Source of the DNA: a virus
Lineage: Duplodnaviria > Caudoviricetes
Reading direction: 5' to 3' (one strand)
IMG/VR virus record: IMGVR_UViG_3300025635_000063
Span: 1 to 39,162 of that record
DNA: 39,162 nt
The notes below the pieces were generated by a model. That model searched no databases. It was given only the letters and a program-made list of their open reading frames with translations, and was not told where the DNA came from. A program made the translations under genes and the position numbers. This document shows, piece after piece, positions 14,272 to 32,020 of the stretch (position 1 is the first letter of the stretch; each line of letters opens with the position of its first letter).

Positions 14272-14946
14272 TTATTCGTCGATCAAATCGCTGGCTGAAA
14301 TGTCGTCCGATTTCTTGCGACCGCGTGCCGATGGCTTCTTCGCGTCCTTCATCTCCGCTTGCATCACCTCGATTTTCGCGGTGAGCGTGGTGACGGTGTT
14401 CAAGAGCTGCTCGTTCGTCCGTTGCAGCGCCGTCATGTCTTGCGTCAGTTTACCCTTATCCTGCGAGGCCGTCATCCAGTTTTTTGCCTTGTTCTTGAGT
14501 TCAATCGCGCCCATGCCGATCTTGCGCAAGCCTTCGTCGTTGAGATCGGACAAGTCCTCAACGGTCCTGATCCCCACCCGCAGAAGAATCTCGACCTGTG
14601 CGGGGCTAATGACAGGCCATGACTTGATGGGCGTACCGTGGACCGGCATCTCCTGCCCGGCCTTCCAGCGTTTGTAGCTTTCCTCGTAGGCGTTCGCATG
14701 GGAGGCGTCGAGCCGTCCCGCCTGTACGTCCAGCTTGTTCTGTGCCAGCCATTGTTCCACCTTAAAGACGACGGAATCGGTAGCCCCAAGCTGCCGGACT
14801 GTGACCATATCCACATCCCGCGCCACATAGCGCCCCGCTTCTTCACTTTCCTTCTTCTGTTCCTTCGCAATCGTCTGAAAGCTCACAAAAGCGGGCTTGC
14901 CGTTCTTCGTGCTTAACTCTCCGGCTATGTCTGCGATACCGTTCAT
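14272..14946 (-). CDS. Phage protein with HhH-like segment and C-terminal coiled coil
   Basis: GTPIKSWP...GIRTVEDLSDLNDEGLRKIGMG; ATGA-coupled to the upstream gene. Confidence 0.5.
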   Translation of the reverse strand: MNGIADIAGELSTKNGKPAFVSFQTIAKEQKKESEEAGRYVARDVDMVTVRQLGATDSVVFKVEQWLAQNKLDVQAGRLDASHANAYEESYKRWKAGQEMPVHGTPIKSWPVISPAQVEILLRVGIRTVEDLSDLNDEGLRKIGMGAIELKNKAKNWMTASQDKGKLTQDMTALQRTNEQLLNTVTTLTAKIEVMQAEMKDAKKPSARGRKKSDDISASDLIDE

Positions 14947-16043
14947 ACTGCAACCTCCTCAGCAAAAGGGACGATAAAGTTCAAATTGGGGAACTGGGCA
15001 CGGATTTCTCGCTCAAAGTTCCACGCCGTCAGAATCACGCCCGCTGGTGGACGTTCCTTGAGCATCTGCATCGACGCAATCGGGATCTTCGTGCCAGGGA
15101 TAAACCGGCCCTGCTTGGCAGGGGTGTTGTCTACGCAGTAGTCGATCACCTTGGCGAGTCCAAAGTGATGAATCAAGGTGGTCGCCTTGGCCGTAGCCCC
15201 AAAGCAGGCCAGCGTGCCGTCTACGTCGAACACTTGCCGCTGGATCACGCGCTTGGCTTGATAGATGCGCTCCTGAAACGCTCGCCAGTCTAGCGGCTCT
15301 TCCGGCAGGACCATCCCCACCCCAGGCCGTTCGCAATAGACGCGAATGGAGCCGCCATGCGTCCCTAGAAACTCATAATTCGTGATGACCAGGCCATACC
15401 GCTTCAGGAACGGCACCCACGGCTTGAGGGTGTGATAGTCACGATGCTCGTGGTAGATCATGTCGAAGGCCCCCATGTGCATCATGGCGGGCAGGTATTG
15501 CACTTCAAAGACCAGTACGCTGTCATCGTGCATCAGCCGGTCAATGCCGGAGAACACATCGCGTAAATCGTCCACATGGGCCAATACGTTGTTGGCAACG
15601 ATCAAATCGACGGGCGGCAAGGTCATGGCGAGGGCATGGGAGAACGGGGCTTTCACGCCCACCGTGGCGCAAGGGTCCACGCCGTAGGCATTGATCCCCA
15701 CCCGCTGCAATTCTTCCAGATAGAGGCCGTTATTGCTGCCGATTTCGAGGCCGGTCTTGAGCGACGGATAGCGGTTGTGAATCCGTTGCGCGGCGTCAGC
15801 CAAGTGTGGCCGGTTCGCTTCGGGCGTGCTGTACTTGTAATCCACCCAATCCACCGTCACCTTTTCGCGTAACTGCACATGGCCGCATCGCAAGCACTCC
15901 TGCACATCCAGCGGCAACCGTTCGGCGTGGGTATCTGGTTCAGCGGGAAAGCTGTTCGCAATCGGGGTGGGTGTCAGCGAGAGCATGACGCGGGATTCCC
16001 CAGCGCACATGCGACAGGCCCATTCAGAGTAGTGTGCGCCCAT
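14943..16043 (-). CDS. NDP-sugar C-methyltransferase (TcaB9/EryBIII/NovU-type)
   Basis: Zn ligands CRMC...CLRC-GHVQL, SAM motif LEIGSNNG, NNVLAHV, DMIYHEHRDY, THGGSIRV, FGATAKATT, VDNTPAKQG, LTAWNF. Confidence 0.9.
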   Translation of the reverse strand: MGAHYSEWACRMCAGESRVMLSLTPTPIANSFPAEPDTHAERLPLDVQECLRCGHVQLREKVTVDWVDYKYSTPEANRPHLADAAQRIHNRYPSLKTGLEIGSNNGLYLEELQRVGINAYGVDPCATVGVKAPFSHALAMTLPPVDLIVANNVLAHVDDLRDVFSGIDRLMHDDSVLVFEVQYLPAMMHMGAFDMIYHEHRDYHTLKPWVPFLKRYGLVITNYEFLGTHGGSIRVYCERPGVGMVLPEEPLDWRAFQERIYQAKRVIQRQVFDVDGTLACFGATAKATTLIHHFGLAKVIDYCVDNTPAKQGRFIPGTKIPIASMQMLKERPPAGVILTAWNFEREIRAQFPNLNFIVPFAEEVAV

Positions 16044-16519
16044 TATGGCTTGACCCCCTCAATCCGCATATCCCGTGCGGCGATATGAAAGACCGGCTCC
16101 ATCACCGTGACAGACTGATAGCCCACGCTATTGAGGGCTTCCGTCAGTTCGTCCTGTGACCAGCACCATTGATGCATCATGTCAGGCTTGCCGTCGCGGG
16201 GATCACCAAAGATCCCAAACAAGGTGAGCCGCAGATTCTTTTCGCCGTTGACGATCATGCGGGCAATCTTGTCGAGGCAGGGCAGCTCTAACACCAGCTT
16301 CCCCCCAGGCTTGAGCACGCGAAACCACTCAGTCAGCACTTGCGAGGCGTCTTTACGATGCAAATGCTCAAGTAAGTGAATCGCCCACAGTTCGTCGGCG
16401 TGATCCGTTGGGAAGGGCAGGGGGAAGGCATCGCTGTTGATGTCCTGGTTGCCGTGGCGGTCGATATTGACGAATCCAGGCAGGTATTTATCCCCCGCGC
16501 CCACATTCAAACGAATCAT
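16043..16519 (-). CDS. Class I SAM-dependent methyltransferase
   Basis: RLNVGAGDKYLPGFVNID, HLLEHL, EWFRVLKPGGKL; type commonly linked to glycan loci. Confidence 0.85.
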   Translation of the reverse strand: MIRLNVGAGDKYLPGFVNIDRHGNQDINSDAFPLPFPTDHADELWAIHLLEHLHRKDASQVLTEWFRVLKPGGKLVLELPCLDKIARMIVNGEKNLRLTLFGIFGDPRDGKPDMMHQWCWSQDELTEALNSVGYQSVTVMEPVFHIAARDMRIEGVKP

Positions 16520-17364
16520 GCGGCCACCCGCTCAATCAGTTCGCGCCATTGCTGGCCGACGTTGGCCGGTGAGAACTTCTCAATGTAGGCTTGCCCTTCC
16601 GCCACCAAGTCGTTGAGATGATCTTTTTCCGACTGTGCCCACTTCAGGCCGGTGATGAAGTTGCCCACCCAGGCCACTTTCTTGAACTCAAAGAGCGAGG
16701 GGAGTTGATCGCCGCAGACCGGAAAGCATCCGGCGCGTAAGGCGTTGACCAGTCTATTAGGGCTTTTGTACTCGGTGCCTTTGCGCGTGGGAATCAGGAC
16801 AATGTGCGCCCGGTGGAGTTGTTCGGCCTGTGCGTCAGGCGTCCAGCGGATATAATCGGCCTTCCAGTGATGGTTTTCGCCAGTCACTACCGTAAGGTCC
16901 ATGTCCTTCAAATACGGCATCCACGGCGACAATTCTTTCAAGTTGATCTGATGCCCGTACCACAACAGCCGCTCGGCTCCGTTCGCGTGCGGGGTCGTCA
17001 AGGCTTCTTCATACGGGTCGGGGATGACCATATCGGCGTGCCGGTCAAAGTACTTGTAGAGCCGTCCTGACATATTGTCCGTCGGCGTGACAATGGCATC
17101 AGCCAGCCCCACCATCTCACGATAGACCGGACCCCACACAGGATGAGGGAACAAATCATCGCCTACGTCAAAGATGATCTTCAGCCCGTCCGCTTTCGAG
17201 TCTTTGGCAAGCTGAATGTCGTCAGGCGTCGGCTTGGAGAAGATCAAGACTTGCGCTTCGCCACCGTTCACCGTCCCGCCAATCGCCTCAGCAGGGATAG
17301 CAGCGCGATACCGATAACTCGCAAAGGTCGGCCCACTCCGATGCACAAAGACGGCTTTGGTCAT
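16516..17364 (-). CDS. GT-B fold glycosyltransferase (GT4-like)
   Basis: ASYRYR, IIFDVGDD, ADAIVTPT, VIPDPYE, LLWYG, KSPNRLVNALRAGCFPV. Confidence 0.75.
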   Translation of the reverse strand: MTKAVFVHRSGPTFASYRYRAAIPAEAIGGTVNGGEAQVLIFSKPTPDDIQLAKDSKADGLKIIFDVGDDLFPHPVWGPVYREMVGLADAIVTPTDNMSGRLYKYFDRHADMVIPDPYEEALTTPHANGAERLLWYGHQINLKELSPWMPYLKDMDLTVVTGENHHWKADYIRWTPDAQAEQLHRAHIVLIPTRKGTEYKSPNRLVNALRAGCFPVCGDQLPSLFEFKKVAWVGNFITGLKWAQSEKDHLNDLVAEGQAYIEKFSPANVGQQWRELIERVAA

Positions 17365-21065: not shown

Positions 21066-21493
21066 GCCGTGGGCGTGCTCCTGACCACATCTGCTGTCAT
21101 GCCCTGGTCTACCATTTCGCTATAGAGTTGTGCCCGTTTCGCCGTGGGCATCTTCTCAATCGTCTCCTCGACATGGGCGTCAATCATCGCGTCGAGCTTC
21201 GCATCGCCCTCGTCAATCCGGCGCTTCGCATCGCGTTTCATCTCAGGGTCGTAGGGGACGCAATCGTTCCGCTTCAGGTCCTCTCTCCAGGCGTCATGCG
21301 AGGTGATCGGCCTGCCGTCGATCGGAGAATCAAAACACAACTCCGCCGCCACCTTGACCAACGTCGGGGCGGTAATGATCTGCGTGGCTTCCTGACCGCA
21401 TTCACACATCCAGACCGATGAATGCTCTGAGACTGTTGAGAACCGCTGGAAGCGATGACCGTTCAAGCACGAGTAGAGATAACTTGGCATCAC
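21062..21493 (-). CDS. FmdB-like zinc-ribbon phage protein
   Basis: MPSYLYSCLNGHRF...CECG, then SPIDGRPITS. Confidence 0.65.
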   Translation of the reverse strand: MMPSYLYSCLNGHRFQRFSTVSEHSSVWMCECGQEATQIITAPTLVKVAAELCFDSPIDGRPITSHDAWREDLKRNDCVPYDPEMKRDAKRRIDEGDAKLDAMIDAHVEETIEKMPTAKRAQLYSEMVDQGMTADVVRSTPTA

Positions 21494-22203
21494 ACCCCCA
21501 CTGGTTTCGGCATGTTCAAGGTTGGGAATGCGAGGTCCAGTTCAGCGAACCACTCCCGCGCATAGTCGCAGAACTGGTAGTCCCTGAACCACGGACCTCC
21601 TAAGGTATAGTGAATCAGTTTCGGGGTTTCGGTGCTCTGGTTCGGTTCAGCCACCAGATAGTTCCACTCCATCGGCAAGTCGCCAATGTTCTGCTCCACG
21701 CCCGCCCAAGTCATCCGGTGCAGGTCCAGACCGGAGGCCGTGTTGACGTAGGCCGGGGTGAGCCGGTCGCAGTACTTGTTGCGGAACACCATCACGCTCG
21801 ACCAGTTCTTCCGTGGATAGACCGTTTGCTCCTGCGCCTGCATCTTGAGCGAGGACGACGGCGTGTAGCTATGCTTGACGCACCAGACGGCGCGTAGCTC
21901 ATCTTTCTTGGCAATCTTAACCAGTTCATAGACATCCCCCTGGCAGAGCATGTCGCAGTCCATGAAGATCGAATAATCGCCGTACCCGCTCATGTAGGGC
22001 ACTAGAAAGCGCGTCAGCGAGAACTCGGTGCTTTCCGTCTTGCCCCGCTCCCTCGTATAGAGGCCAGCCTGGCGTAAAGAGTCTTGCACCAGCGGCGTAA
22101 TGGAGACAGGTCCCGACGCCTGCCGTAAGATACTGTGGCAAAGGACATGGTAGGCGACGGTTTCAGCGGGGTCATAGCCGATAAACACATTTAAGGGCCT
22201 CAT
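21490..22203 (-). CDS. GT-A fold glycosyltransferase (GT8/CDI-like)
   Basis: VFIGYD, STEFSLTRFLVP, DxD motif FMDCDML, YPRKNWSS, WNYLV, IHYTLGGPW. Confidence 0.85.
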   Translation of the reverse strand: MRPLNVFIGYDPAETVAYHVLCHSILRQASGPVSITPLVQDSLRQAGLYTRERGKTESTEFSLTRFLVPYMSGYGDYSIFMDCDMLCQGDVYELVKIAKKDELRAVWCVKHSYTPSSSLKMQAQEQTVYPRKNWSSVMVFRNKYCDRLTPAYVNTASGLDLHRMTWAGVEQNIGDLPMEWNYLVAEPNQSTETPKLIHYTLGGPWFRDYQFCDYAREWFAELDLAFPTLNMPKPVGV

Positions 22204-26955: not shown

Positions 26956-26983
26956 AGTTAACATAATACACATTATCGGACTG
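26956..26983 (-). other. dif-like XerC/XerD recombination site
   Basis: Minus strand CAGTCCGATAA-TGTGTA-TTATGTTAACT versus E. coli dif GGTGCGCATAA-TGTATA-TTATGTTAAAT; intergenic. Confidence 0.8.
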
Positions 26984-28286: not shown

Positions 28287-28310
28287 CTCTCTGTGAATAG
28301 TGGGAATAGC

Positions 28311-28448
28311 TGTAGCAGAATGGGTCAGCGGTGTAGAGAAATGCGGCGGCAATTGGCGTGGAGTTGTAGCAGAATGGGGCATTCACTGAATCTAGCCTAC
28401 TCATAACCCCTTGTTTTATAGTCTGCCCCTATCAGGCACAGGGCTTGC
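28311..28448 (+). promoter_or_regulatory. Putative sigma54 promoter with upstream activator repeats and IHF-like site
   Basis: GGCACAGGGCTTGC (GG-N10-GC, 28435-28448); TGTAGCAGAATGGG repeated at 28311 and 28365; TAACCCCTTGTTT at 28404. Confidence 0.65.
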
Positions 28449-29492: not shown

Positions 29493-29522
29493 CTAGGGAT
29501 CTTACTAGGGACGTTTTTGTGC

Positions 29523-29551
29523 TTGACCACTGGGGTGTGGCCGTGTAGAGT
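29523..29551 (+). promoter_or_regulatory. Putative sigma70-type promoter for the replication operon
   Basis: TTGACC-17 bp-TAGAGT; ACTAGGGA direct repeats at 29492 and 29504 just upstream. Confidence 0.55.
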
Positions 29552-29567
29552 GTTTGCACAATTTGCA

Positions 29568-29681
29568 GCGGTTGGGATAAGCAACCGTGTCGAGTGTTTC
29601 CGGTTCCCCAGTAATGGCGAACCAGAACACAAGGGGCTTTCTAGGGGATCTTATCCGTCCCTTGGAAGGCCCTTTCTTTTT
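29568..29681 (+). ncRNA. Structured 5' leader (three hairpins ending in an intrinsic terminator) before the replication initiator
   Basis: Stems 29568-29588, 29594-29630 (GTAA loop) and 18-bp 29631-29675 followed by CTTTTT; loop 1 GGATAAG is complementary to loop 3 CTTATCC. Confidence 0.65.
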
Positions 29682-29693
29682 GGAGTGCATCAT

Positions 29694-30548
29694 ATGTGGG
29701 TTAAGATTGATGATGGGTTTGCGACTCATCCCAAGATTCTTTCTGCTGGTCCCCTTGCGGCCCTCATCCAAATCCGCGCCATTTGCTTTGCAAGCCAGAA
29801 TCAGACCGATGGATTCATCCATGAATCTGCCGTTGGCTTGCTTTTCATCGGGTTTGAACGGATCGGCATTGATAAAGGGCGCATTGGAGACTATGCCAGT
29901 TTTGGATCTCAAGCGGATGAAATAGACTGGCCCGCACTCATGGTTGAGCATGGCCTATGGGAGACTCGACCAAACGGATACTACATCCATGATTATCTCG
30001 AATGGAATTTATCAAAAAAAGATCGAGAATCTTTCATAAATCAGAAAAGTAAAGCTGGCAAAAAGGGCATGAAAGCCCGATGGACAAAGGCTAAACAAGT
30101 TATATCAGGCGTTATAACATATGATATAACAAAACCATATCACGCTATATCTACATCTACATCTAGTATTTCATCTCTTAAATCTTCTCCTTCTTCTCTT
30201 CATTCTGAATTTGAACAATTCTGGCAAGCATATCCCAAGAAAGCAGGCAAGAAGGCTGCTCAGAAAGCCTTCCAGAACGCGCAGGATCGCCCCAGGATCG
30301 ACGATCTACTGGCAGCTATACATCGGGCCAAGGGTTCACCCCAATGGGCCAAGGAGAACGGTCAGTACATTCCGCATCCGGCGACATGGCTGAACCGTGG
30401 ACAATGGGCAGATGTCCCAACAGAAACCAAGCCGAGTGTGTTTGAGGAGTTTTTAGCGAGAGGAGAGCGCGATGATGAATCGACCGGAGTTTTTGAGGGG
30501 CTGGCTGTTACTGACCGCTCAACCGTGGGGAAGGACGTATCGCAGTGA
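29694..30548 (+). CDS. Phage replication initiator protein
   Basis: MWVKIDDGFATHPK N-domain, YYIHDYLEWN, C-domain FEQFWQAYPKKAGKKAA...YIPHPATWLNRGQWAD; GGAG RBS. Confidence 0.85.
   Translation: MWVKIDDGFATHPKILSAGPLAALIQIRAICFASQNQTDGFIHESAVGLLFIGFERIGIDKGRIGDYASFGSQADEIDWPALMVEHGLWETRPNGYYIHDYLEWNLSKKDRESFINQKSKAGKKGMKARWTKAKQVISGVITYDITKPYHAISTSTSSISSLKSSPSSLHSEFEQFWQAYPKKAGKKAAQKAFQNAQDRPRIDDLLAAIHRAKGSPQWAKENGQYIPHPATWLNRGQWADVPTETKPSVFEEFLARGERDDESTGVFEGLAVTDRSTVGKDVSQ
30099..30152. repeat. Iteron-like repeats / probable replication origin inside the initiator gene
   Basis: GTTATATCA (30099), GTTATAACA (30111), GATATAACA (30123) at a 12-bp period, then degenerate copies, in an AT-rich patch. 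Confidence 0.6.
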
Positions 30549-31708: not shown

Positions 31709-31896
31709 CCTGTCCCCAATGCAAACACCCGATTGACAGCATTCACCCTAATACCTACGGCGTGGGCTGGTGCCGTCTCGACATTCACCTCGCCTGCCTG
31801 CCGCTGCATGTGCGGAGCTGCCAGGCGTGCAGGCATCATAATGAGGGCCACATCTCACACCAACCTGTGAATTCTGTGAATAGCTGTGGCAAATAG
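31705..31896 (+). CDS. Cys/His-rich small protein
   Basis: ATGA-coupled; CPQC...HLAC...CQAC. Confidence 0.5.
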   Translation: MTCPQCKHPIDSIHPNTYGVGWCRLDIHLACLPLHVRSCQACRHHNEGHISHQPVNSVNSCGK

Positions 31897-32020
31897 GGGC
31901 ATTACTGGCGCATTATGCGACGGCGAAAACATTGGGGTTTCTGAGTGCTGCCCCGTTTCTCCCCAGGCCCGTAGATGAATGGTGCGATTGGCGTAGGGTT
32001 TTCTGTGGCATGGGAGTAGC
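31885..32020 (+). promoter_or_regulatory. Second putative sigma54 promoter with upstream activator boxes
   Basis: TGGCATGGGAGTAGC (GG-N10-GC, 32007-32020); 17-bp boxes at 31885, 31906 and 31949. Confidence 0.55.

Follow-up and report, generated by a model that had tools for sequence, protein, structure and literature searches.

How a tailed phage meters its own replication when it carries no recognisable repressor is the question raised by the leader that precedes the predicted replication initiator of this phage. Many uncultured phages are in this position, and in the window (the whole 39,162-base virus record analysed here, with a completeness rating of complete) searches against PHROGs returned no match to integrase, cI-type repressor, or partition families among 65 open reading frames (ORFs). 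The minus strand carries the genes for head, tail, and terminase, and the plus strand those for replication, a methylase, Erf, and RusA. Amid the virion genes, genes resembling methyltransferases and other enzymes form a cluster (14943–17364 and 21490–22203, minus strand) that may serve particle or surface modification, and two non-coding regions (28291–28381 and 31865–31901) share 20–37-base repeats that are possible protein-binding sites. A preliminary description of this DNA proposed that the leader is an RNA switch, which controls the initiator through complementary hairpin loops and could replace a protein repressor. Comparative analysis now shows that the leader is a conserved three-hairpin RNA element with covarying pairing between loop 1 and loop 3, and that this element heads initiator operons.

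The first gene after the leader (29694–30548, plus strand) encodes a predicted replication initiator of 284 amino acids, matching PHROGs 9327, 270, 9474, and 3926, which include replication-initiation and primosomal families (E-values from 6e-24 to 1e-17); no Pfam family was found for this ORF. The initiator has 159 homologues and appears modular, with one C-terminal domain joined to at least four unrelated N-terminal domains in the clade (alignments A1, A3, and A6). Inside the gene, four 8-bp repeats (30099–30151, plus strand) are candidate origin iterons and, by analogy, a candidate part of the replication origin, origin repeats within the initiator gene being the lambda O-type organisation.

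The leader itself lies on the plus strand behind a sigma-70-type promoter-like site (29523–29551), composed of a -35 TTGACC (29523–29528), a 17-nt spacer, and a -10 TAGAGT (29546–29551). This site matches the consensus at 9 of 12 positions and by itself is a weak signal, 7 kb containing 8 sites of this quality and shuffled sequence 4.4. Just 5' of the -35 box, a 6-base motif occurs twice (29493–29498 and 29505–29510), 12 bases apart; it is found twice in L091, once each in L009 and L167, and as a variant in L346, is common to the RNA and zinc-finger types of locus described below, and may be an activator site. The predicted transcript start and 5' single strand (29558–29567) include an ACAATTT motif, the start being placed at the 5' end conserved in alignments. 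Hairpin P1 (29568–29588; 7 bp) follows, presenting loop L1, or "key", GGATAAG (29575–29581), then hairpin P2 (29594–29630), capped by GTAA (29611–29614) and abutting the long terminator-type hairpin P3 (29631–29675), whose loop L3, or "lock", is CTTATCC (29650–29656). The U-tract of the predicted intrinsic terminator (29673–29681; 7 U of 8) and a Shine-Dalgarno-like GGAG outside P3 (29682–29685) complete the leader, and the initiator ATG stands at 29694.

All these components were where the preliminary description had placed them, and loops 1 and 3 are, as it stated, exact 7-base complements. Its third hairpin of 18 bp was also recovered, with a length of 19 bp (-29.4 kcal/mol) once three bottom pairs overlapping the U-tract are counted, and the GNRA-type loop that it reported for hairpin 2 holds for the window (GTAA) but gives way to other cap loops in relatives, where P2 retains a bulged U close to the base and a mismatch beneath the variable cap. 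The minimum-energy fold of 29558–29682 contains all three hairpins (z = -5.9; equalled by 0 of 200 shuffles). Furthermore, a descriptor requiring one hairpin of 5 bp, a U-tailed one of 12 bp, and loops complementary over 7 bases matched once in the window and was present in 1 of 200 whole-window shuffles; no second copy of the leader was found in the window.

Relatives were gathered through initiator scans, DNA patterns, and the whole records of relatives, yielding 16 elements: the window, L001, L091, L092 (cut at its 5' end), L093, L094, L095, L099, L167, L262, L263, and L346, and the further copies G363b, G004b, G367a, and G367b, with L093 and L094 identical throughout the element. Absence of loop covariation in homologues had been named at the outset as the outcome that would speak against a switch; this was not what was seen, as each of the 16 elements pairs its own loops over 6–7 bases, in 13 different codes. 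Mismatched loops pair over at most 4 bases in 228 combinations, and in a permutation of the 11 distinct codes none of 200,000 draws reached the observed sum. The match was seen in eight of eight elements found without requiring it, seven of them by position and L346 by a pattern free of loop 3; the other seven were retrieved with a descriptor that demanded the match and by themselves are no proof of it. A covariance model blind to the loop–loop contact (hereafter the kiss) gave 10 matches in 100 loci, all with the kiss, five of them being its training set.

In a model-fitted alignment of 10 elements (A10), two-sided changes were detected in 40 of 44 pairs (P1, 7/7; P2, 13/14; P3, 15/16; kiss, 5/7), bearing in mind that this alignment favours the stems to which it was fitted, and not the kiss, and that two rows are misregistered in the loops. 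The two kissing pairs that do not vary are the final two bases of loop 1. The stems hold 38 G-U against one A-C, a count biased by hairpin picking; this excess favours a plus-strand RNA, for which the covariance model scored 128 bits on the plus strand versus 17. P3 measures 15–23 bp and -22.7 to -31.7 kcal/mol in 16/16 elements and is separated from the preceding helix by 0–2 nt, likewise in 16/16. The 8-nt tail has 6–7 U in 11 elements and 3–4 U in the other five. A promoter-like site lies 5–9 nt ahead of the element in most relatives; among 12 examined, it scored 8–10 of 12 matches in seven and 7 of 12 in two, and the script missed three.

These data bear on whether the repeated 7-mers act as RNA at all. 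The two form an inverted pair in DNA and could be the binding site of a dimeric protein, initiator or repressor, with the RNA fold incidental. This reading is largely refuted and hardly credible now, since the 7-mers sit exactly in hairpin loops in 16/16 elements, their spacing varies from 56 to 76 nt among the 14 measured, all three stems covary, and the same code precedes unrelated initiator N-termini (window and L346) when different codes precede close ones. A homodimer kissing through self-complementary loops was also rejected, as at most 4 bases would pair.

The initiators that follow the element have N-terminal domains of at least four unrelated kinds; in L263 it stands before a small ORF followed by the initiator, in G367a ahead of a helicase operon, and in G363 and G004 before a stretch leading to RecT or RecE genes. 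Its orientation is always that of the replication, helicase, or recombination operon that it heads. In genomes with two copies the codes differ (3/3), with a cross-pairing of 2–4 bases. Second copies with different codes lie at L351:3242-3356 (minus strand), L359:6513-6604 (minus strand), and L417:13421-13537 and 16780-16900, at recombination, helicase, and initiator operons.

An RNA of ~122 nt that stands alone would give the kiss a structural or oligomerising role and would act elsewhere, in immunity or as a decoy, the initiator being expressed from upstream promoters or by leak. The strength of P3 in every element suits such an RNA, and head-to-tail dimers would be sterically easier than a taut kiss in cis, judging from the linker model considered below. 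We regard it as unlikely, however, because the element invariably heads the operons just named in the same orientation, because its copies share no code in the three two-copy genomes, and because the loop 7-mers occur elsewhere in the window at chance frequency only. A phi29 pRNA-like packaging RNA was likewise set aside: genes for both the small and the large terminase subunits lie elsewhere, and the RNA travels with replication operons.

What occupies the same place when the RNA is missing was assessed in a close, non-redundant set of 17 loci whose identity to the N-terminal part of the initiator is 49% or more and whose upstream DNA is present (L097, lacking it, was dropped). Eight carry the RNA, six a zinc-finger ORF in the same slot, and three neither. 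This ORF, of ~50 amino acids with four cysteines, directly follows a promoter-like site and either runs into the initiator start or lies ahead of it; it was located at L008:3862-4017, L009:3865-4017, and L168:5324-5473, and in L010, L096, L098, L102, and L104. It reached the cut-off of no Pfam family, its Atlas matches are unnamed clusters, and it is a candidate autorepressor. RNA and zinc-finger ORF occurred together in no record fetched, including the complete G363 and G366. The suggestion that the RNA replaces a protein repressor is in keeping with this slot sharing (6 of 17 loci, never with the RNA), which is suggestive only. Repeated swapping between the two is not shown by the initiator tree (20 rows, mostly unresolved), because its RNA and zinc-finger labels are no more clustered than in shuffles (89 and 328 of 500).

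The loci with neither feature are L089, L090, and L011. L089 and L090 have a 90% identical initiator, but here P1 and P2 are lost and a short hairpin with an uncoded AT loop and a U-tract remains (L089:700-760), which looks like a natural loss of the switch. Beyond the close set, the leader was found in 0 of 15 loci of terminase relatives, a promoter pattern scan returned a single member among 46 matches, and a loop pattern scan gave no new member among 6 new matches. A different strong-fold leader (-52 to -56 kcal/mol) with a similar promoter pattern and no loop match was observed in three related contigs (L388–L390, ~1240–1400).

Regarding the host, Nitrospira is the probable one, because the best genome matches of the initiator search are two contigs of Nitrospira metagenome-assembled genomes (MAGs), L167 with the RNA and L168 with the zinc-finger gene, contigs that could be misbinned. 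Among 151 genomes of the MAG's family the covariance model gave a single match, L347, which was rejected as a chromosomal terminator whose loops do not match by eye. An initiator profile run on 301 genomes of the MAG's class gave 3 matches, two of them new and neither with the leader, and these yielded no integrated prophage context.

A dif-like site, which is context and not part of the leader, lies at 26958–26976 on the minus strand (0 of 100 shuffles). Xer-mediated integration via dif-type sites is known from filamentous phages, and by analogy this site could serve dimer resolution or Xer-mediated integration. In the Nitrospira MAG's family, 58 of 61 genomes contain a single-copy motif that a looser dif pattern matches and that the phage site resembles. 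The preliminary description had taken the site as a hint of a plasmid-like state to which an RNA switch would be suited; the site itself is genuine, but it shows no tie to the RNA and does not establish such a state. Sites of this kind are present in G363 (RNA type, with a tyrosine integrase), in G365 and G366 (zinc-finger type), and in G003 (neither), and the complete G367 has no convincing one. The proposed link is further weakened by the presence of the RNA in a phage with an integrase and by the lack of a recognised partition gene in the window. As a separate observation, dif-like sites at L350:13510, L354:9302, L357, L363:4089, and in the window lie close to that end of the packaging region where the terminase small subunit is encoded, and most dif-carrying tailed phages of the clade have no recognised integrase, so that Xer-exploiting tailed phages are possible.

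In view of the pairing, the terminator-type P3, and the position of the element, we consider it probable that the leader is an attenuator gated by the kiss. Control of transcription rather than translation is preferred because in two second copies, G363b and G004b, P3 is not immediately followed by a start codon. For the same reason it is very improbable that the leader acts on translation, with loop 3 switching between loop 1 and a third occurrence of its code close to the ribosome-binding site. In favour of such a switch, four of the 12 elements (L346, L262, L263, and L001) match their own code over 5–6 bases in the start region (permutation p from 0.001 to 0.14, varying with duplicates and the score used); the test is post hoc and not robust, and at the window's start region its own loop matches 4 bases whereas that of L095 matches 7.

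In the model that we propose, loop 1 would pair in the nascent RNA with the emerging loop 3 segment; P2, which shortens the linker and abuts P3, would help to keep the terminator base from closing in time, resulting in read-through (ON). In a second step, terminated transcripts of ~122 nt, their loop 3 folded, would capture loop 1 of new transcripts in trans while polymerase covers the ~68 nt that lead up to loop 3, leaving the terminator free to form (OFF). As phage templates increase, short RNA would rise and initiator fall, which is a negative feedback, and the variable 6–7-base code would keep the feedback of each promoter apart from that of other copies and phages. Taken whole, as a self-damping transcription attenuator for the predicted initiator that combines gating by the kiss with feedback by short RNA, the model is tentative and falls somewhat short of an even chance in our judgement, its attenuator part being better supported than its feedback part.

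Both steps have precedents. In the guanidine-IV riboswitch, a long-range kissing loop blocks assembly of the terminator and a longer stem shortens the linker (PMC11611296; PMC7736828), a model also reviewed elsewhere (PMC10907184), and structures a short spacer away from a terminator suppress termination (bioRxiv 10.64898/2026.06.17.733018). The logic of step 2 is that of antisense RNA attenuation in pT181 and pIP501 (PMC5703833), and the P4 CI RNA is itself derived from a leader (PMC4825925).

No conserved antisense promoter was found, the best antisense scores falling at scattered places in 12/12 elements, and scoring of consensus sites gave no minus-strand promoter between 29396 and 30694; therefore, any antisense partner would need to be the leader itself. 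A short-RNA input is preferred because ligand-like conservation and an antisense promoter are both missing, because the codes are strictly Watson-Crick, and because the alternative occupant of the slot is a small protein made from the same promoter. Moreover, L089 and L090, which have no P1, keep a short uncoded hairpin, as expected if the long coded P3 serves the kiss.

Several observations count against the model or narrow it. A crude linker model, applied to seven elements, has the kiss exclude only the last 1–4 pairs of P3 in six of them and no pair in L001 (in the window, mostly the pairs overlapping the U-tract), so that the estimate supports step 1 only marginally; with exclusion this marginal, the released RNA may kiss itself and hide its loop 3, defeating step 2. 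The poor U-tracts of five of the 16 elements count against an attenuator, and a simple upstream hairpin had little effect on more stable terminators in the tug-of-war study (bioRxiv 10.64898/2026.06.17.733018). Close initiators with neither RNA nor zinc-finger gene (L089, L090, and L011) also count against the model, and recurrence of the code GGATAAG in two divergent lineages (window and L346; L093 and L094) is not what strong diversifying selection would be like.

Covariation is blind to cis versus trans and to ON versus OFF, and it fits equally well an attenuator that works in cis only, in which the kiss opposes the terminator, the released RNA has no role, and read-through is either fixed or set by polymerase speed, Nus factors, Mg2+, or a phage protein or ligand on P2. 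The kept bulged U and mismatch of P2 could be a binding site for the latter, drift alone would also predict differing codes among copies in one genome, and guanidine-IV acts in cis with a ligand. Nevertheless, only 6 invariant columns were counted among 8 sequences in a sequence-only alignment, which is not an invariant base set resembling a ligand pocket, and a terminator kept merely to be defeated needs an input, and the analysis pointed to none. We treat the cis-only attenuator as a rather doubtful though substantial possibility.

The model with feedback by short RNA would make the leader a one-piece controller with an address code, target and antisense regulator at once, in which terminated transcripts count the templates and throttle the replication genes without protein, ligand, or antisense promoter, through orthogonal 6–7-base codes, and which would be evolutionarily exchangeable with a small zinc-finger autorepressor; in this wider form we offer it with reserve, as one possibility. 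If true, a compact RNA gate on the initiator would explain how phages of this kind meter replication, and kissing-loop antitermination, known from one riboswitch class, would extend to a ligand-free phage setting. The 13 natural codes, which do not cross-pair, make the model directly testable and, if the trans step holds, would constitute a ready library of orthogonal transcription regulators.

No description of the element was found in the openly available literature searched. Rfam, one of the checks proposed for the leader, gave no family match: three weak hits on the window were all far under the gathering score (ftsZ-DE over the leader, discarded at 24.7 against 72.2 bits, reflects terminator shape), nothing relevant appeared on 10 further loci, and no riboswitch among the families of release 15, whether or not guanidine-IV is one of them, matched up to an E-value of 5. 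Leader blastn gave 0 matches in 50,697 phage and 72,556 plasmid records. A catalogue of 10,006 viral candidate RNAs could hold this element; its accessible text has no kissing loops and the three supplements searched, which are part of the whole, gave no match (PMC10690425).

The known systems nearest to the leader each share one part of its layout. In I-complex plasmids, the repZ leader works through an activator pseudoknot mechanism. These plasmids resemble our leader in that loop recognition ahead of a replication initiator involves an RNA, Inc RNA, whose sequence sets incompatibility (PMC10286972; PMC7491321); control there is translational and relies on a leader peptide and on an antisense RNA transcribed separately, features not seen in the phage leader. 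In P4, the CI RNA (seqA, seqC) is a short RNA, processed from the leader transcript, that is complementary to a site upstream in it and promotes premature termination ahead of the replication genes; a second target of CI lies downstream (PMC4825925). The analogy with P4 drawn in the preliminary description is apt in that the leader is complementary to its own upstream site, and falters in that the two copies differ in code in three genomes. Here, the complementary segment is the terminator loop, copies within a genome share no code, and a seqC-like downstream target is absent from the window and present in part in four of the 12 elements (p from 0.001 to 0.14); Rfam and blastn gave no homology to CI, IsrK, or C4-type RNAs.

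In pT181 and pIP501, a terminator also lies just upstream of the initiator start and RNA–RNA pairing sets the Rep outcome, through a counter-transcribed antisense RNA together with a stem-invading pre-emptor (PMC5703833). In contrast, the leader has no conserved antisense promoter (a non-consensus one is possible), and its contact is loop to loop. HK022 put resembles the leader as modelled, being a phage RNA next to its promoter that influences termination with no phage protein involved, and the element stands right behind early promoters of replication and recombination operons, so that the folded leader might bind RNA polymerase and confer resistance to downstream terminators. However, put is described as a ~65-nt double hairpin without a loop–loop code, which modifies polymerase for distant terminators (PMC8632103), whereas the leader has three hairpins over ~122 nt, a terminator-type hairpin and terminal U-tract of its own, and a freely variable sequence, and we judge a put-like role to be very remote. 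The leader further resembles the tug-of-war riboswitch, in which a structure a few bases upstream of a strong terminator suppresses termination without shared sequence, in that P2 abuts P3 by 0–2 nt; in that study a ligand-bound aptamer drives the process, and the words "phage" and "kissing" are absent from its text (bioRxiv 10.64898/2026.06.17.733018).

A likeness also exists with guanidine-IV (GGAM-1/mepA motif) and its variant Gd4v, in which the loop of a 5' hairpin pairs with the loop of an intrinsic terminator, a contact proposed to keep the terminator from completing, much as in the model for the leader (PMC7736828; PMC11611296; PMC9788692). As described there, both have two hairpins, highly conserved bases around the pseudoknot, guanidine as input, and sugE-type genes; the leader differs by its three hairpins, by 13 loop codes in 16 elements in place of conserved bases, by the lack of a known ligand and of an Rfam match, and by initiators, helicase, and recombination operons downstream instead of sugE, GNAT, MATE, or transaminase genes. 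On the features tested, the leader fails to fit the guanidine-IV, pT181-type, P4 CI, and put families, and its sequence has the GC-rich hairpin and U-tract of an intrinsic terminator (7 U of 8 in the window). In brief, by analogy with these systems, the leader may be viewed as a Rep-type attenuator equipped with an expression platform that works in the manner of guanidine-IV.
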